DNA of 64,000 nt, taken from NCBI GenBank assembly GCA_014728225.1, contig WJLX01000050.1, forward strand, positions 3,008 through 67,007, read 5' to 3'. A program made the position numbers and the translations under genes. Every line of letters starts with the position of its first letter. The first letter of the stretch is position 1. The stretch comes from Candidatus Coatesbacteria bacterium (GTDB lineage Bacteria; RBG-13-66-14). Positions 908-60,163 of this stretch are shown here, piece after piece. The notes under the pieces are model-generated. The model was not told the origin of the DNA. It searched no databases and saw nothing but the letters and a program-made list of their open reading frames with translations.

Positions 908-1104
908 CCGGCGACCTTTGAAAACAGCCCTCGTCGTTTCGGCGGTCGTAGACTGCTCCACCGCCGGAACTGGCACGGTTTTTGCATCTCGGCGCCCGTT
1001 ACGATTGATGCTAACGGTCGGCCTCCGCAAAAACCGTGCCAGTTCCGGCGGGGCGGCAGGTGGTTTTCACGGGGCGTTGGTTTCGTGTTTTCAAAGGTCG
1101 CCGG
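908..1104. repeat. long nested palindromic element, copy 1 (conserved core 964-1048)
   Basis: Outer arms ccggcgacctttgaaaaca (908-926) / tgttttcaaaggtcgccgg (1086-1104). Core ccggaactggcacggtttttgcatctcggcg...cggcctccgcaaaaaccgtgccagttccgg with inner cgtta...taacg stem. Paralogous copies at 29947-30137 and 46504-46699. Confidence 0.7.
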
Positions 1105-5330: not shown

Positions 5331-5354
5331 CAAGCCGTCAGTTGATCAATAACA

Positions 5355-5380
5355 CCGGGGCCGACGGCCCCGGTTTTTTT
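5355..5380 (+). terminator. rho-independent terminator
   Basis: ccggggccgacggccccgg followed by ttttttt, 25 nt after the stop of the 4389..5330 gene. Confidence 0.7.
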
Positions 5381-5602
5381 AGCGGCATCGTCCACCCTGC
5401 TAGACCGACTCGCAGCGAATAGAGAGCAAAAGCTCAAATCGCGAAAACGGCTGAGAGAAGAGGGCTGGTAGAGGACATCTCGACCACTGTCGATAACGAC
5501 TGCCTTCTGCAACTACTCGAGGAGCAACCCGAGACTGAAGGTGTTGAACCGTATAGTCTTGGTTACAAACCGCTTAGGTTGCTTGTGTCAATCTGTCACC
5601 GC

Positions 5603-6147
5603 CTCCCTGATAACCAGGCTGAGGTTGCGTTTGAAACCGCCGTGGTGGGCCTTTCGCCGGCGTTCGGCGTAGCCCCGGAAGTTCTCGAGGTCCTTGATAT
5701 GCACCCTGCCAGTGGCCGGGGTCTTGTCATGATTGATGCGCCTGTGATGGAAGCCGTTGAATGAGACAGCTCGTTAGCGGCCTGTCAGCCGTCGGAGTGG
5801 ACGCTCGAGTCCAGCTCGGCCTCCCGAGCCGCGGCGATGCGCTAGTGCTTGGCGACCGTACTGGGATGGACGCCGACCCTCTTGGCCTTCCCGGCTGCGG
5901 TTGCTTCAAGCCGAAGCAGCACGGCGATCAACCAGCGCTGTTCCAAGGCGCTCGCACGTCCGCCGCCCGTCGCCTAACCTGTAGTGATAGCGGTAGTTAC
6001 ACTTCGCACACTTGACGCGCCTGGCGGGATTACCCTTTGAGCCGGCGGCCACAGCGCCTCCTTTGCCCGTGACGTGGCGGCATCCCGTCAACTCTCGTGA
6101 AGACAAGACAATCACACATATGACGACCCATGGGCGTTAGGGTAGCC
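5603..6147 (-). pseudogene. degenerate IS1595/IS1-superfamily transposase remnant, copy A
   Basis: About 85% nucleotide identity over ~545 bp to 15620-16193. Zinc-ribbon-like N-terminus (KCAKCNYRYHYRLGDGRRTCE) but reading frame broken by stops and deletions relative to copy B. Confidence 0.6.
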
Positions 6148-7507: not shown

Positions 7508-7760
7508 CGGTATCCTCCTCGGATCGGGTTCAAACGCCTCGCGGCCGCTGCACCGCACCATCAGCTAAATGCAAGAAGTGTGCCAGTCGTTCATTATCAA
7601 CAAGATGCGCAGTATGCACCCCGCGGAACGGCCCGTTGAGCCAGAACCGTGCATGATTTGCTGCGCCCAACGACCAGGGCCGGGCGCTGCGGGGCTCCGA
7701 GAACGTCCCGGACGCCCGGCTGAAGCGTCACCAGGCGATACAGCTTATGCTGCAGGCGGC

Positions 7761-7830
7761 GGCCCCGGCGCGGTTCTTGCCCGCGGGACGCCGACGGCGG
7801 ACCGCGGAATGCAAGAACCGTGACGGGGCC
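7761..7830. repeat. short hairpin sharing the cggttcttgc...gcaagaaccg motif
   Basis: ggccccggcgcggttcttgc / palindromic loop ccgcgg..ccgcgg / gcaagaaccgtgacggggcc; sits between the comEC 3' end and the DUF1566 gene start. Confidence 0.5.
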
Positions 7831-7962
7831 GGGGCCGGGAAAGGGGAAAGCGCTGAGCGACGGAGGATAAAGCGCAACCGCGGGGGGTCGGCGAGCGGTC
7901 GGGAGGTGGGGGGACGACCGTCCGCGCGGAACTGAGGGTGGCTTGACGAGGAGAGCGGTTGT

Positions 7963-11472: not shown

Positions 11473-12459
11473 ATGACCCCCCGCCGGCCGTTGGGCATCA
11501 CAGCCACTGTTCCCCTCGAGATCGCCCTGGCGGCGGGGCTGCGCCTGGTGGACCTCAACAATGCCCTGGTTCGCGGTCCGGACCCCGCCGGCGCCGTCGC
11601 CGCCGCCGAGGCCGACGGCTTTCCCCGCAACACCTGCGCCTGGATCAAGGGCATCTACACCACGATCAAGCGGCTGGGCCTCCAGCGCGTCGTCGGGGTG
11701 ACCCAGGGCGACTGCTCCAACACCGAGGCCCTGCTGGAGTTGCTGACCGACGAGGGCGTCGAGACCGTGCCCTTCGCCTACCCGGCCTCGCGCGAGCCCG
11801 CCGAGCTGCGCCGGGCCATGGAGGGCTTCGCCGCCGACCTCGGTACCACCCTCGCCGCCGCCGAGGAGTGCCGCGAAGGCCTGCGCCCCCAGAGGGCCGG
11901 ACTCGAACGCCTCGACGAACTCGTCGTCCGCGGCGAGCGTCGGGGGGTCGATTACTTCGAGCTGGCCCTGACCGCCACCGATTTCGGCGGTGACCCGGCC
12001 GCCTATCTAAACCGACTTGAAGAGGTCCTGCGCCACGGTCCGCCGCCGACGGCCCGCGGTCTGCGCCTGGGCTGCCTCGGCGTGCCCCCGGCCTTCAGCG
12101 ACCTGTCCGAGCGCCTGGCCGACTTCGGCGCCGAGATCGTCTACTGGGAGATCCCCCGTCAGTTCACCATGCCCCACGACAGCGCCGATCTCGTCGCCCA
12201 GTACCGCGCCTACAGCTATCCCTACGGCATGGCCTTCCGCCTGCGCGACATCGCTCGCCAGACCGCCCGCCGCCGTCTCGACGGCCTCGTCCACTACGTC
12301 CAGGCCTTCTGCTTCCGCCAAATCGAAGACATACTGGTTCGGCGTATTTTGCCCGATGTACCCCTGCTGACGCTCGAAGGCGACCGCCCCGGTCCCCTGG
12401 ACGGCCGGGACCTGCTGCGCCTGGAGAGCTTCTGCGAAAGCCTGCTGCTGGAGCTCTGA
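11473..12459 (+). CDS. 2-hydroxyacyl-CoA dehydratase / benzoyl-CoA reductase subunit family protein (HgdB/BcrC-like)
   Basis: Blocks NTCAWIKG, GVTQGDCSNTEALLE and the C-terminal region match the HgdB/BadD family; no partner subunit or activator adjacent. Confidence 0.55.
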   Translation: MTPRRPLGITATVPLEIALAAGLRLVDLNNALVRGPDPAGAVAAAEADGFPRNTCAWIKGIYTTIKRLGLQRVVGVTQGDCSNTEALLELLTDEGVETVPFAYPASREPAELRRAMEGFAADLGTTLAAAEECREGLRPQRAGLERLDELVVRGERRGVDYFELALTATDFGGDPAAYLNRLEEVLRHGPPPTARGLRLGCLGVPPAFSDLSERLADFGAEIVYWEIPRQFTMPHDSADLVAQYRAYSYPYGMAFRLRDIARQTARRRLDGLVHYVQAFCFRQIEDILVRRILPDVPLLTLEGDRPGPLDGRDLLRLESFCESLLLEL

Positions 12460-14063: not shown

Positions 14064-14674
14064 TATCGCTCCACGTCGGTCATCCTAGCCGGGGCGCCAG
14101 CGGTGCCCTCCCGCCGGAAACCCGCTATATGCCGGGGCGAACGCCCGGTGAGGCGCAGGCGGGCTTCGGGGCGTCGGGTGAGCGAAGCCGTGAAGGTCTG
14201 GACCGTCGCATCCGGGTACTCCCGAACCCCGTCAGGCCCGGGAGGGAGCAGCGGTAGGGAGCCGCCCGGAGTGCCGGCGAACATCTGGGCTGGAGCCGAG
14301 CGAGCCCGGCGGCGCGGAGTTGCGCACGTCGAGCCGGTGCCGGATGACCGCCGTGGGGCCCGCCAGGGCCCCGCCTTTTTATCTCTGACCTTTACGGTGG
14401 TTGTTGACCAGCCGAGACCGGCCGAACGCCTCGCCCCTCCCAGCGCCGGCGCCGCCGCTCAGAACCAGCCGCTGCGGGTCTAATTGCTTCAGCGGACTCC
14501 CTGGCAGAATGACATGGTCCTTTTCAAGATGAGCAGGGGCAATTATCGCCGCCGACGGCGCGCAATACTGTGATTTTGATAGCATTCTCCGGCCTTGGCT
14601 TAACTGGATCGGCTGAGTTAAGATAAAATCAAGTAGTATTTTGCCACCCCAACGTCACCACGTAGACGAGGGCG

Positions 14675-15544: not shown

Positions 15545-16120
15545 TCATGGACCAATCAGGCTGTTGTTGGGGTAGTCTAGCCTGCCGGGATCGTTTCTGT
15601 GGTTGAAGCTGAACTCCATCTCCCTGATGAAGAGACTGAAGTTGCGCTTGAAACCGCCGTGGTGGGCCTTTAGCCGGCGTTTGGAATAGCCCCGGAAGCT
15701 CTCGAGGCCCTTGATATGCACTTTACCATTGACCGGGGTCTTGTCATGATTGATGCGCTTGTGGTGTAATCCATTGAGCGACGGCCAGTTACAGACCTTC
15801 CAGCCGTCGGAGTATACGATCGATTCCACCTCGAACTTCTCCAGTTCGGCCTCCCGAGCGGCGGCGATGCGCTCGCCAATGATACGCTCGTACTTGGCGA
15901 GCGTACTGGGCTGGACGCGAGCCTTCTTTGCCGTCCTGGCCGCGGTTACTTCAAGCCACAACAGCACGGCGATCAACTCGCGCTGTTCTAAGGCGCTTAC
16001 ACATCCGCCGCCCGTCGCCAAACCTCTACTGATAGCGAAAGTTAAACTACGCACACTTGACGCGCCTGTCGGGATTACCCTTTGAGCCGGCGGCCACAGC
16101 GCCGCCTTTACTTGTGGCAT
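15545..16120 (-). pseudogene. truncated IS1595-type (ISXO2-like DDE) transposase ORF within copy B
   Basis: C-terminus VYSDGWKVCNW..HKRINHDKTPVNGKVHIKGLESFRGYSKRRLKAHHGGFKRNFSLFIREMEFSFNHRN matches the IS1595 DDE C-terminal signature; the N-terminal zinc ribbon is in another frame with stops, and the first catalytic region appears deleted. Confidence 0.55.
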
Positions 16121-16193
16121 GAAAGCATCCTGGTAACTCTCGTGACTACAAGATTATCACAATATATGATGATCCATAAGCGTTAGGGTATCC
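15620..16193 (-). mobile_element. degenerate IS1595/IS1-superfamily element, copy B (same orientation as copy A)
   Basis: Homologous to 5603-6147; both end in gcgttagggta(g/t)cc. Confidence 0.6.
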
Positions 16194-20376: not shown

Positions 20377-20446
20377 GGGCCGGCGGGCGTTTTTGCGACG
20401 ACGGAGCCCCGGAGCTCCGTCGTCGATGCAAAAACCCTGCCGGCCC
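20377..20446. repeat. short hairpin with gcgtttttgc...gcaaaaacc motif
   Basis: gggccggcgggcgtttttgc / gacgacggagccccggagctccgtcgtc / gatgcaaaaaccctgccggccc, then gggaagcgt; between convergent genes. Confidence 0.5.
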
Positions 20447-20667
20447 GGGAAGCGTAAAAAAAAGCTCGCAGGCTCCGCAGGCCTAAGATAAAGCGACCCT
20501 CGATTGGTAACATCTCGGGCCGCTCGGGAATGGCCGGCTTCACAGCGAAAACCGCCTTTCCTCAAGGCGGTGCCCCGCCGCGCGGTAGTTAACTAAAACC
20601 GCCGGGCGGGATGCCGGCTCCCGGCCCGGCGGGCGCAGCTCAGGCGAAGGCGTCGTCGCTGCGTGGC

Positions 20668-23913: not shown

Positions 23914-24011
23914 GCCGACGGCTTCGCCCTCCACAACCTAGTCAGTAGTGCTGGGTTTATCCGGCGCGGGACGCGGGGTCCTCCAGGAACTCAACGGCAC
24001 CGACAAGCGCC

Positions 24012-24085
24012 GGGCCGGCACGCGTTTTTGCCCGCAGACCTCCCGGTCAAGGGAGGTCTGCGGAATGCAAAAACCGTGACGGCCC
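24012..24085. repeat. short hairpin with gcgtttttgc...gcaaaaaccgtg motif
   Basis: gggccggcacgcgtttttgc / ccgcagacctcccggtcaagggaggtctgcgg / aatgcaaaaaccgtgacggccc, then gggaagcgt; between convergent PhoA-like and M28 genes. Confidence 0.5.
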
Positions 24086-24376
24086 GGGAAGCGTTAAGCC
24101 GTCGCAGATCGCAGACCGCAGATCCCGTGGTGGTACGGATAACGTAGAGAGTGGGGCGCCGCCGACAACGGTTCCGGCGAGGCGGAATCACCAAGCCGGA
24201 GCCGAGCAAGCTCCGGCTTCGATAGGTTCGTTCGCGCTCAACGCCCAAGGCCAAGCTCAGCAAACCGCCGGACGAATATGGGGCCGACCAGCAGGTCGGC
24301 CCCAGGCGTTTGACCAAGCTCATTCAGGACCGGGCGCGCCGCAGTTCCCCGCCCATGATACGATTCAACACCAGAC

Positions 24377-29082: not shown

Positions 29083-29109
29083 CCCGGGCTGGGCCGCGGC
29101 AACGCCGAA

Positions 29110-29141
29110 CCGCCCCCGTGGCCGGGGGCGGTTCTTGTGTT
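29110..29141 (+). terminator. rho-independent terminator
   Basis: ccgcccccgtggccgggggcgg followed by ttcttgtgtt. Confidence 0.6.
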
Positions 29142-29928: not shown

Positions 29929-29946
29929 GACTCCTCCAGGCGCTGC

Positions 29947-30137
29947 GGCGACCAGCGAAAACGGCCCTTGAAGAATCCGACCCGGCAAAGACTCCGGCGC
30001 CCCGGAACCGGCACGGTTTTTGCATCTCGGCGAACGTTACGGGCGAGTTTAACGCTGCGCCTCCGCAAAAACCGTGCCGGTTCCGGGGCAGACGTCAACG
30101 GTGTGTGTCTTTTCGGCGGCCGTTTTCGCTGGTCGCC
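29947..30137. repeat. long nested palindromic element, copy 2 (core 30002-30086)
   Basis: Outer arms ggcgaccagcgaaaacggcc / ggccgttttcgctggtcgcc are perfectly complementary; core nearly identical to copies 1 and 3. Confidence 0.7.
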
Positions 30138-30147
30138 GGGGTCTTTG

Positions 30148-37499: not shown

Positions 37500-37570
37500 G
37501 ACGGCGGCGCGGTTGTTGCCCGAGTCCACCCGCCAGGGTGGACTCGGTGCGCAAGAACCGTGCCGCCGTC
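37500..37570. repeat. short hairpin with gcggttgttgc...gcgcaagaaccgtg motif
   Basis: gacggcggcgcggttgttgc / ccgagtccacccgccagggtggactcgg / tgcgcaagaaccgtgccgccgtc, 47 nt after the hutU stop. Confidence 0.5.
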
Positions 37571-46348: not shown

Positions 46349-46503
46349 GGCATAAACCTCCGTTAAACCTGCGGGACCCGGCTCGGGAGCTCTACCACCC
46401 GGGTCGGCGCAGCCGCTGGTTGCCGTGGTGGATGCTTACTACCATTTTAGCCCAACTCGGTGCCGTTGTCAGGTGGCTTGACCAAAACCACAAACGCCTC
46501 GAC

Positions 46504-46699
46504 GGCGGCGGGAGGCCGTTGATAGCGATACCGAGGTCTGCGGCCGCCGCAGACCCCCGGCCGGAACTGGCACGGTTTTTGCATCTCGGCGACCGTTAAT
46601 GACGATGATAACGGTCGGCCTCCGCAAAAACCGTGCCAGTTCCGGCCGGGGGTCGTGGTTTTTCGGGGGTTGGCGGGTTTTCAGCGGCCTCCCGCCGCC
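46504..46699. repeat. long nested palindromic element, copy 3 (core 46561-46645)
   Basis: Outer arms ggcggcgggaggccg / cggcctcccgccgcc; inner palindrome ggtctgcggccgccgcagacc; core identical to copy 1 except the loop. Confidence 0.7.
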
Positions 46700-46722
46700 G
46701 GTTCGTCAACGTCCCGCGAGGT

Positions 46723-58242: not shown

Positions 58243-58613
58243 ATGCCGATCGTTAAACAACATTGAGCTCTCTCAGCTATTACTGGCCGCCGGGAAGCGC
58301 TGAACAGGAACACGCAATTTCGATCACCCGACTTGGGGTGCGATTGTGTTCACGCTGGTATCGACACAGCAGGAACTCTTTCCTTTGACGTGGGATCTGT
58401 CGATATACCGGAACGGTTTTGCGATAACCCGAGACGGGTAACAGGCATCACCGTCGAGAATAAAAAGTGACAATAGCGACAGGTGCGCCCATGGCGACGA
58501 GGGATACTGATAAGCTGCTCGGTGAAAGGCAAGAAAGACACAGCTCTGCCAAAGTGTGTTTCACAACCGAAGCCTGTGATACAGGTTTTTACGGGAAGTT
58601 AAGGAGCAGGGGA

Positions 58614-58979
58614 ATGGGAAAGGGAATCGCTCTAACAAACGGCAGGTTGATGCCGTCGGCCCAGGGTGGACTGGCTTGCTATGACGCAATGACGCTGGTC
58701 CGGGCGCGGATCGCCCGTATGCTGCGGGCCCGGCGGGGAGAGCTGGAATCTCATCCCGATTGGGGCAATCCGTTGCTGGAGCGTCTCTCCGCTCCGACAG
58801 ACCGTGAGACTATGGTCGCCTGGACCGACGAGTTGCGTCGGCTTGTGGGCGGAGATCCTGCTGTACGCGAAGTCATGGACCTAACCATCAAACGTCTCGG
58901 CAACCGCAGTTGGTTTATCAACATCGTTTTCATTCCCCATGATCTAAGCGAACAGCAGATGGAGATTATGCTCGTCTAG
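58614..58979 (+). CDS. phage baseplate wedge protein, GPW/gp25-like (lysozyme-fold)
   Basis: 121 aa from ATG with aaggag RBS; ...ARIARMLRARRGELESHPDWGNPLLERLSAP... and C-terminal WFINIVFIPHD fit the gp25/gpW pattern. Confidence 0.6.
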   Translation: MGKGIALTNGRLMPSAQGGLACYDAMTLVRARIARMLRARRGELESHPDWGNPLLERLSAPTDRETMVAWTDELRRLVGGDPAVREVMDLTIKRLGNRSWFINIVFIPHDLSEQQMEIMLV

Positions 58980-59014
58980 ATGCTTCACGGGCGGTAGAAG
59001 AAAGGACGGCAGGA

Positions 59015-60163
59015 ATGCTATATACCGACAGTGAACTGCTAACACGAATTATCGAATACTACAGGGCCCGTTGTCCCCAACTAGACGATTACACTCCGGG
59101 CGAGGTCATGCTTGGGCTGGCCGAAGGCGATCGCGACGTCGCGGCGGACCTGCTCTACCAGGCTGAAAAGCAGCTCAATCGCTGCATGATCGACACCGCG
59201 AAAGGCGACGATCTGGACGTACTGCTAACCGGTTACGGCTTTTCAAGGCCTGCACCGGCCAAAGCGCACGGCGTAGTCACTATTTCTACACCTTCCCTAA
59301 GCAGCGATACGATCGTCGGTACGACGATCACCATCCCCAAGGGTACCAAGCTGGGGTTGGGCAGCTTTAATTACACTTCGAATGTGGTCTTCGAAACCGA
59401 TTACGACGTTGATTACACCTACGGGGACACCTCCACAACAGATGTCGACATTACGGCTGTGGAACCCGGATCCCGCGGCAATGTTAATGCTAATACGATT
59501 ACACGTATTCTAAATAACGAGAGCTGGGCGGTCAAGGTGACGAATCCCTCACCGACCAGCGGTGGGCACGACGATTGGTCCGATAGTGAGTACAGACGCC
59601 TCTTCCGCGCCTGGTTGGCCTCGATGGGCAAGACGACCAAGACCGCCGTCGAGGGCCGAGCCCTGCTGGTGCCCGGTGTCTACAACGCCCAGTTGGCAGA
59701 GAACGTTACGAGCAACGAGGAGACTGTCACCGAACTCAAGGGTAATAACGTCCTGTTTATTTGGAACGGTACAGATCAAACAGCTGACGAGGCATTGGAA
59801 ATCCGGGTCCGTGAGGTGTTGGTCGACGATTACCGTGGTATTGGCACCACCCTAACCGTCAAGCACGCAACTCCTGTAGCCGTGGACTTGACGATTGAAA
59901 GACTTACGATCAAGCAGGGTTACAGCAACAACAAGATCAAGAATGACGTCTCAGTCGCTCTGCAACGCTATATCAGGAGCTTGGCACCCTCGCAGAATGT
60001 CAGCAAGGCCAAGGCCGTCCAGCATGCAATGCAGGTGCCGGGCGTTAAGGAAATTCAATTCAATGATAGTGAAGCTATTGAAGAAATCAACATCGGATGT
60101 GTCGCCCTGCCCGGGGACGTGACCTTTACCAACATCGATCGCGCGGGGGGTGAGTCGTCGTGA
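59015..60163 (+). CDS. Baseplate J-like protein (gpJ/gp6/Mu gp47-like)
   Basis: HGVVTISTPSLSSDTIVGTTITIPKGTKLG..VVFETD typical Baseplate_J core; 382 aa. Confidence 0.65.
   Translation: MLYTDSELLTRIIEYYRARCPQLDDYTPGEVMLGLAEGDRDVAADLLYQAEKQLNRCMIDTAKGDDLDVLLTGYGFSRPAPAKAHGVVTISTPSLSSDTIVGTTITIPKGTKLGLGSFNYTSNVVFETDYDVDYTYGDTSTTDVDITAVEPGSRGNVNANTITRILNNESWAVKVTNPSPTSGGHDDWSDSEYRRLFRAWLASMGKTTKTAVEGRALLVPGVYNAQLAENVTSNEETVTELKGNNVLFIWNGTDQTADEALEIRVREVLVDDYRGIGTTLTVKHATPVAVDLTIERLTIKQGYSNNKIKNDVSVALQRYIRSLAPSQNVSKAKAVQHAMQVPGVKEIQFNDSEAIEEINIGCVALPGDVTFTNIDRAGGESS

Follow-up and report, generated by a model that had tools for sequence, protein, structure and literature searches.

A 64,000-nucleotide stretch of a Candidatus Coatesbacteria bacterium genome (assembly GCA_014728225.1, contig WJLX01000050.1, positions 3,008 to 67,007; hereafter the window) contains three full copies of an intergenic, nested palindromic repeat of about 190 bp, and the arms of its core stem match the consensus of sigma-54 promoters. 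Since the core is palindromic, each copy has two sigma-54-type sites that point at each other. We give roughly an even chance to the reading that these copies belong to a lineage-specific foldback DNA repeat, resembling miniature inverted-repeat transposable elements (MITEs) or the hairpin-forming doublets of repetitive extragenic palindromes (REPs) known as REPINs, which carries convergent sigma-54-type promoters and acts at the level of DNA. Full copies are called A-type below (copies 1 to 3 in the window) and shorter, degenerate relatives B-type; shuffled versions of the sequence provided the chance baseline for counts, folding z-scores and arm lengths.

Copy 1 occupies positions 908-1104 as a whole nested palindrome (outer arms 908-926 and 1086-1104, extended core 953-985 and 1027-1059, interior 986-1026), copy 2 positions 29946-30138 (outer arms 29946-29966 and 30118-30138, core 29999-30023 and 30065-30089, interior 30024-30064) and copy 3 positions 46503-46700 (outer arms 46503-46522 and 46681-46700, core 46552-46582 and 46624-46654, interior 46583-46623). 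The 23-mer GGCACGGTTTTTGCATCTCGGCG occurs exactly three times in the window, always on the plus strand, where shuffles lead one to expect 0.00 occurrences. According to an inverted-repeat finder the core arms of copies 1, 2 and 3 measure 33 nt (91% complementary), 25 nt (100%) and 31 nt (100%), enclosing 41 nt in each case, and the outer arms 19 nt (100%), 21 nt (100%) and 20 nt (95%), outer lengths that none of 200 shuffles reach. The folding energy of copy 1 is −122 kcal/mol on the plus strand (z = −9.1 against shuffles) and −116 kcal/mol on the minus strand (z = −11.0). The nested palindromes at copies 1 to 3 are real and far beyond chance. An earlier note, made from the sequence alone, had described a family of three copies at 908-1104, 29947-30137 and 46504-46699; all three are present there, to within 1 nt at copies 2 and 3, and, as it also proposed, the nested hairpin is held across the copies, with variable positions of both the core and the outer arms staying complementary. 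The family is larger than it supposed, however, with four degenerate relatives in the window that it had missed and more in related contigs.

Core arms and sigma-54 promoter sequences

The general sigma-54 consensus is mrNrYTGGCACG-N4-TTGCWNNw, with the GG near −24 and the GC near −12, and 110 predicted Geobacter sulfurreducens RpoN promoters give the consensus TTGGCACGGTTTTTGCT (PMC2725144). The core arm CTGGCACGGTTTTTGCA fits TGGCACG-N4-TTGCW at all specified positions, with exactly 10 nt from GG to GC, and its upstream bases also fit the rNrY of the general consensus. Its 15-mer TGGCACGGTTTTTGC is identical to the Geobacter consensus over 15 consecutive bases, the GTTT at N4 included. Both arms of all A-type copies agree with TGGCACGNNNNTTGCW at 12 or 11 of the 12 positions; at one mismatch or fewer this pattern has seven matches in the window against 0.53 expected, five of them in copies 1 to 3. 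In copy 1, the left arm carries the −24/−12-type site TGGCACGGTTTTTGCA at 971-986 on the plus strand (12/12), which points inward with a predicted start near 997, and the right arm carries the mirror site TGGCACGGTTTTTGCG at 1026-1041 on the minus strand (11/12), which points leftwards to leuS. The corresponding sites lie at 30009-30024 (+) and 30064-30079 (−) in copy 2 and at 46568-46583 (+) and 46623-46638 (−) in copy 3. Predicted start sites of opposed arms are about 17 nt apart, inside the interior.

Arms of 16 distinct members from the window and from contigs of its relatives (labelled L001-L036) were aligned, with 34 nt taken from either side. GGCACG and TT.TTGC are the same in every member, and these invariant columns coincide with the positions critical for sigma-54. 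Variation falls on the first and fourth N4 positions (GTTT, TTTC, TTTT or GTTC) and on bases upstream of −24, and there the two sides remain paired within a copy: 70 cells show a change on both sides, compared with 36 ± 4.5 in shuffles, and 79.8% of cells across the 16 members are paired, compared with about 40% when the partner is slid. A sequence constraint, visible in the invariant sigma-54 columns, thus coexists with a symmetry constraint, visible in the paired variable ones. Arms are identical across loci and metagenome-assembled genomes (the window, L001/L002 and L003-L009), while spacers cannot be aligned even among the window copies, and DNA recognition by sigma-54 polymerase is the most economical explanation of the conserved arm sequence.

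Sigma-54-type sites also occur on their own. A lipoprotein gene with an Lcl_C domain is preceded, about 50 nt ahead of its Shine-Dalgarno sequence and ATG, by a non-palindromic putative promoter, TGGCACACTTCTTGCA (7570-7585, minus strand), and another site, TGGCACACTCCTTGCA, at L017 20183-20198, lies just upstream of a Nitro_FeMo-Co family gene. Their textbook distances from genes suggest that the lineage may use this promoter class. About 60 nt from the 7570-7585 site, the plus-strand sequence GCCAGAACCGTGCATGATTTGC at 7640-7665 is similar to the right-arm sequence GCAAGAACCGTGCC and may be what remains of another element.

Outer arms and the inverted interior

An outer inverted repeat, perfect over 13-21 nt, is found in 12 of the 16 members that are not B-type, 26-47 nt from the core on both sides. 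Its length is reached by none of 200 shuffles in 11 of these 12 members and by one in the twelfth. The outer arms had been taken to differ between copies while remaining complementary within each. They are complementary, but they are not unrelated: when aligned, all are variants of one motif, GRCCKTTGAAAAC, which reads GACCTTTGAAAAC in copy 1, GACCAGCGAAAAC in copy 2 and GGCCGTTGATAGC in copy 3, and, among relatives, CTTTGAAAAAC in L003 and L009, GACCTTCGCC in L017a and L001b and GACCTTTGCC in L017d. The sequence GRCCKTTGAAAAC itself is common to the outer arms of copies 1, 2 and 3, L003, L008 and L009. Copy 3 is included because its GGCCGTTGA aligns with GACCTTTGA of copy 1, the perfectly paired stretch being merely shifted outward. 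Perfect pairing extends past the motif by sequence specific to each copy. The spacers between outer arms and core (about 35 nt) keep their length and not their sequence, and are not complementary to each other. In each arm the motif has its centre near −80, a distance that is conserved and that borders on the region of about −80 to −150 where an upstream activator site would be expected; it has no dyad itself, matches no known activator site and occurs almost only inside the elements. There is no target-site duplication or direct repeat at the ends of copies 1 to 3, L003, L008 or L009, and a simple MITE, which the earlier note had also disfavoured, fits poorly for this reason.

The A-type interior (about 41 nt) carries a small inverted repeat of its own and, where it has the ATCTC...CCTCC form, an invariant GCCTCCGC; interiors of the L001, L003, L005, L015 and L017 members are unrelated to that form. 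L010, L011 and L012, assembled independently from a strain whose RseP is 96% identical, have the copy 3 orthologue downstream of rseP, and in all three the 41-nt interior (46583-46623) is reverse-complemented while flanks, outer arms, spacers and core arms are colinear. The copy 3 interior matches that of the related strain at 38 of 41 positions after inversion and at 26 of 44 when compared directly. The inversion swaps which arm reads TTGCAT and which TTGCGG. Three other orthologous pairs are uninverted, namely L001 and L002, the third B-type relative of the window (B3) and its counterpart in L016, and the fourth (B4) and its counterpart in L010.

Assembly data touch on the same question for copy 2. 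Logan contigs built at k=31 from six samples of the window's strain (L023, L024, L026-L029) all end at ...GGTTTTTGCGGAGG, which is 5 nt into the copy 2 interior, past the arm, and a contig of L031, a 94% identical strain, ends exactly at ...GGTTTTTGC. One flank base, the 25-nt arm and 5 nt add up to 31, so the contigs stop where the de Bruijn graph would branch if both orientations were present. These ends are only suggestive, as they would fit coexisting interior orientations and equally a paralogous copy sharing the 30-mer. No recombinase was found among the scanned genes that flank copies.

Template switching between inverted repeats inverts the spacer and homogenises and expands the arms, according to two reports (PMC8604942, PMC13100816), and a single event of this kind can change several bases in a compensatory way, lengthen a stem or turn a loop round completely (PMC8794818). 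An inverted copy 3 interior with all else colinear is the signature of this process. Since template switching makes block-wise complementary changes mechanically, compensation and perfect pairing alone are no proof of a structured RNA, and the TTT/AAA to AGC/GCT block that distinguishes copies 1 and 2, like the copy-specific helix extensions, is accounted for in this way. Template switching, of which the inverted interior is direct evidence, accounts for at least part of the arm symmetry. The earlier argument from the compensatory pattern to a maintained extended hairpin does not follow, given that the interior is inverted between strains and template switching yields such changes mechanically. 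There is a caution here for motif searches, in that compensatory changes and perfect stems co-occur in this family with loop inversion and may have arisen by template switching; a structured RNA is not demonstrated by covariation alone.

Members in the window and in related genomes

A profile search combined with a hairpin-anchored scan brings the window total to seven members, three A-type and four B-type, against 0.04 expected. The B-type relatives lie at 7755-7836, 20377-20447, 24010-24087 (B3) and 37500-37570 (B4), the second and third in intergenic regions between convergent genes and the fourth 50 nt past the urocanase gene; B3 has an orthologue in the same orientation in L016, and B4 has such orthologues in L010 and L022. 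B-type arms are imperfect (GGCNCGNGTTYTTGC / GCAARAACCNTGNC) and enclose a perfect GC-rich hairpin that is different in every copy and is followed by a 3-nt bulge (AAT, GAT or TGC). In the first relative, for example, the arms GGCGCGGTTCTTGC and GCAAGAACCGTGAC surround a separate GC-rich hairpin, then AAT. No outer arms were found in B-type members.

Copies 2 and 3 start 13 nt past the methyltransferase stop codon and 23 nt past the rseP stop codon, respectively, as expected from the earlier description of all copies as lying immediately 3' of minus-strand genes. The description does not hold for copy 1, which is 256 nt downstream of the zinc-ribbon gene, directly upstream of leuS and beyond an ordinary bidirectional terminator hairpin (AAACCGCCGTC...GACGGCGGTTTTA, 1128-1160) that stands between the zinc-ribbon gene and the copy, outside the repeat. 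Copy 2 takes up the 220 nt that separate two co-directional genes and stops 16 nt short of the following start codon. A sigma-70-like promoter, CTGACA-17-TAAAAT, at 46472-46444 on the minus strand, lies between copy 3 and the gene for peptidase C1, and this downstream gene appears to have a promoter of its own. Six of the seven window members are within about 230 nt downstream of a stop codon (copy 1, at 256 nt, is the seventh), the B-type members being 50-130 nt past theirs. Among 11 members whose context was classified, seven are in tandem, three in convergent and one in divergent arrangement.

The methyltransferase beside copy 2 has 100% identity to a protein that NCBI assigns to a Candidatus Coatesbacteria metagenome-assembled genome. 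Relatives were gathered by exact-pattern scans and through homologues of RseP, alkaline phosphatase and the methyltransferase, and further copies were found, as the earlier note had advised seeking, in L001-L009, L015 and L017. The exact-pattern scan located the core at orthologous loci in the genome-collection contigs L001 and L002, and at other loci in seven short contigs of one metagenome, L003-L009. In close strains of 93-96% identity (L010-L012, L016, L022, L031) elements are kept at identical sites. L015 and L017 (about 72-85% nucleotide identity, L017 about 75%) have one and four elements, respectively, and distant relatives (L018-L021, L032-L036) have none in the roughly 20 kb examined of each. 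The four L017 elements are at intergenic sites, two of which have a comparable site in the window, between PD40 genes and upstream of the phosphatase; the window lacks the element at both, and L017 in turn has only a plain terminator at the site of B3. Elements have been gained or lost at orthologous sites between the window and L017. The L017 terminator at the B3-orthologous site (11590-11630) is bidirectional, reads GCAAAAACCTCTC-TGGAAG-GAGAGGTTTTTGC and holds the repeat-arm words GCAAAAACC / GGTTTTTGC in reversed order, which may be coincidence or kinship. Another L017 member, at 14222-14337, has a 72-nt interior and two arms that both match the sigma-54 consensus at 12 of 12 positions; it stands between divergent genes for an M28 peptidase and a VIT/VWA protein, and each of its arms points, past the opposite arm, at a gene. 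A look-up of the zinc-ribbon protein in other samples found no orthologue of the copy 1 locus. Plasmid and phage collections held no similar DNA, and a scan of viral contigs gave 0 matches.

Remnants of the insertion-sequence type IS1595/ISXO2 are seen at 15548-16153 on the minus strand (a truncated gene with a DDE_Tnp_IS1595 match) and at about 5560-6100 (a similar, frame-broken fragment), and L001 has at 2196-2662 a 466-bp insertion encoding a zinc-ribbon transposase N-terminus that is absent from the 93-96% identical L002. From 58464-60160 (+) on to 64000 the window encodes phage-tail or contractile-injection baseplate proteins (a weak gp25 match, Baseplate_J); the third-codon GC of this stretch, about 0.6 against 0.8-0.9 in the rest of the window, suggests acquired DNA.

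Competing explanations and known systems

A full copy consists of two mirror halves, each formed by the terminal motif GRCCKTTGAAAAC, a spacer of about 35 nt and an inward consensus sigma-54 promoter sequence, with the opposed promoter sequences facing each other across an interior of about 41 nt. In the reading of a foldback repeat with convergent promoters, the stem would be conserved as double-stranded DNA that is read by sigma-54 RNA polymerase, and the polymerase would sit there as a stable closed complex, firing only on the action of an enhancer-binding ATPase; sigma-54 holoenzyme does form stable closed complexes without activator (PMC2725144). Polymerase may bind or fire at the elements, and binding could start activator-dependent transcription that runs out through the opposite half, could titrate sigma-54, or could set up a roadblock. 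Template switching within the element during replication, and not selection, would keep the arms complementary, copy-specific variants included, and would now and then flip the interior. Copies would have spread by transposition, and B-type members would be older, decaying ones.

Several findings weigh against this reading. Neither an RpoN box nor a GAFTGA activator motif was found in the 358 kb of sequence examined, which covers only part of the genome. In copies 1 to 3 the better arm (TTGCA) is antisense to both neighbouring genes and, as the family occurs in tandem, convergent and divergent contexts alike, a simple role as promoter of the next gene does not fit. No precedent for face-to-face sigma-54 promoters was found in the literature searched, the coverage of which was incomplete. 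The N4 and flanking positions stay complementary, which two independent promoters would not need and which implies some force on pairing itself, so that selection on the hairpin may contribute, and in B-type members the hairpin is better preserved than the sigma-54 spacing. None of the IS1595-type remnants carries the ends of the element, and no autonomous parent element was found in the contigs examined; with neither a parent nor a target-site duplication, we infer mobility from distribution only.

The main rival, which we consider rather unlikely, is a cis-acting RNA hairpin in read-through mRNAs that, like REP or enterobacterial repetitive intergenic consensus (ERIC) sequences, would serve as a 3'-end protector, RNase III site or operon-internal insulator, its likeness to sigma-54 promoters being incidental or secondary. 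Folding of the entire element is exceptionally stable on either strand, variable columns stay paired in the outer arms, the core and the interior alike, three tiers in all, B-type members after stop codons keep strong hairpins without a good sigma-54 match, and copy 2 is very probably transcribed through, given that it fills a co-directional gap up to 16 nt before the start codon. Such a hairpin nevertheless leaves unexplained why exactly the sigma-54-critical bases are invariant and why a match of 12 out of 12 defies chance, and it has to accommodate an inversion that alters the RNA loop sequence yet is tolerated, a copy 1 that lies beyond a separate terminator, and the L017 element at 14222-14337 in a divergent promoter region. 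Nor does it correspond to an Rfam family: a search of the whole window with Rfam 15 at the gathering threshold found none at the elements, and a permissive scan of copy 1 returned only generic long-hairpin (microRNA precursor) matches far below threshold. The sole Rfam match in the window is a bacterial small signal recognition particle RNA at 14195-14294 (+), with 68 bits against a gathering score of 40. Of the structured RNA that the earlier note had offered as a candidate, the architecture thus stands, whereas the lack of an Rfam match and the explanation of the stem sequence by the sigma-54 consensus speak against it.

We regard as improbable a bidirectional terminator or insulator, either a hairpin without U-tract or a roadblock formed where sigma-54 polymerase occupies both arms. 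The canonical intrinsic form, also suggested earlier, is rejected by the absence of a U-tract after the hairpins: no T-run follows the core or outer stems of copies 1 and 2 in the direction of the upstream gene, and a terminator scan makes no call from the core or outer stems of copies 1 to 3 in gene direction, while the genome has ordinary hairpin-plus-T-run terminators elsewhere (1128-1160, about 5352-5378 and 29104-29135). The location of window members, mostly downstream of stop codons, would suit such a role, as would the convergent genes around two of them and one L017 member, the stability of sigma-54 closed complexes without activator (PMC2725144), and copy 3, which stands at a transcription-unit boundary inasmuch as a sigma-70-like promoter for the next gene follows. 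After copy 2, on the other hand, the next gene begins too soon for a new promoter to fit in between.

It seems similarly improbable to us that the palindrome is more than a selfish repeat and serves as a functional device. In one unlikely version it would be a recombinase-free switch, in which the 41-bp flip sets which of the two opposed promoters has the favourable −12 context (TTGCAT as against TTGCGG) and hence the direction of activator-dependent transcription. In the other, also unlikely, the sigma-54 promoter would lie on an extruded hairpin or cruciform, whose duplex end at −12 would mimic the fork junction to which sigma-54 binds most tightly.

Very improbable, finally, is a multi-copy sigma-54-dependent small RNA, for which the TTGCA arm would fire inward to yield an RNA of about 70-165 nt with an anti-Shine-Dalgarno-like CCUCC: the invariant GCCTCCGC in ATCTC...CCTCC interiors, the T-run of the 1128-1160 terminator that rightward transcription from copy 1 would meet and same-strand terminator-like matches after copies 2 and 3 agree with it, but shuffles fold as well as the predicted RNAs do (z from −1.4 to +1.8), their starts fall inside the interior hairpin, the L010 inversion joins the interior to a different downstream sequence, and the interiors of the L001, L003, L005, L015 and L017 members are unrelated. 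Small RNAs from the internal promoters were accordingly rejected as lacking a structural signal, and any structural role would require the element to be covered from end to end by a transcript or by single-stranded DNA.

Other identities were also set aside. A small open reading frame from ATGCAAAAACC (MQKPC...) at the interior/arm junction is conserved neither in length nor in sequence and has 4 codons in two B-type members. As integron attC sites the elements fail because CCGGAAC/GTTCCGG and GAAAAC/GTTTTC do not fit RYYYAAC...GTTRRRY boxes, there is no integrase, and the window copies are 16-29 kb apart among housekeeping genes and form no cassette array. Retron non-coding RNA and CRISPR are rejected for want of a reverse transcriptase and an array, and DNA-uptake sequence pairs (comEC is in the window) on density, intergenic restriction and the sigma-54 match that explains the sequence. 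Sigma-54 reads B-form DNA, and a 6S-like RNA decoy for it was discarded on the reasoning that an RNA copy would not present the same groove.

If sigma-54 polymerase binds the elements, a genome with the density of the window would carry many high-affinity sites, and once bound these would titrate the sigma factor, seed activator-dependent transcription that is antisense or enters neighbours, or act as roadblocks. A repeat family would then have a new route to rewire a regulon in an uncultured phylum. Dispersed palindromic repeats and promoter-carrying repeats are kinds already known, and in the searchable literature we found no report of a repeat whose stem consists of opposed perfect sigma-54 promoters around a flip-flop interior.

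Compared with known sigma-54 promoters, the arms have the exact TGGCACG-N4-TTGCW match, GG and GC 10 nt apart and the N4 GTTT of Geobacter. They differ in forming face-to-face pairs 41 nt apart in a dispersed palindrome, often without a gene to drive, and in having no recognised palindromic enhancer site at the elements; the promoters here are putative. With MITEs, the Neisseria Correia elements included, and foldback elements the family shares a size of about 190 bp, non-coding, multi-copy and intergenic nature, a terminal-repeat motif common to copies, a patchy distribution among related genomes and the carriage of promoter-like sequences. Unlike MITEs, the elements show neither a target-site duplication nor, in the contigs examined, a parent insertion sequence with matching ends, their strongest conservation is internal, in the core arms, and complementarity runs into copy-specific sequence past the shared termini. 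REPs and REPINs, inverted doublets mobilised by REP-associated tyrosine transposases (RAYTs), resemble the family in that an inverted pair of a 22-nt unit, CCGGAACYGGCACGGTTTTTGC, 38-43 nt apart, forms a long hairpin and is dispersed between genes, often 3' of them. The 22-nt unit, by inspection, has no internal dyad or GTAG-type head, the density looks lower, an extra outer tier of inverted repeats is present, and no RAYT gene was seen in the part of the genome examined. As in invertons, a promoter-bearing inverted repeat flanks a segment that is found in both orientations, here between strains, although at 41 bp the segment is far shorter than is typical and no recombinase gene adjoins any copy. 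Template-switch products as reported (PMC8604942, PMC8794818) concern short inverted repeats in yeast genes and hairpins of ribosomal RNA and microRNA, whereas here a perfect repeat of 25-31 bp belongs to a dispersed bacterial element; the likeness to them lies in an inverted loop with unchanged arms between close strains, two-sided block changes (TTT/AAA versus AGC/GCT) and stems that lengthen into sequence particular to each copy.

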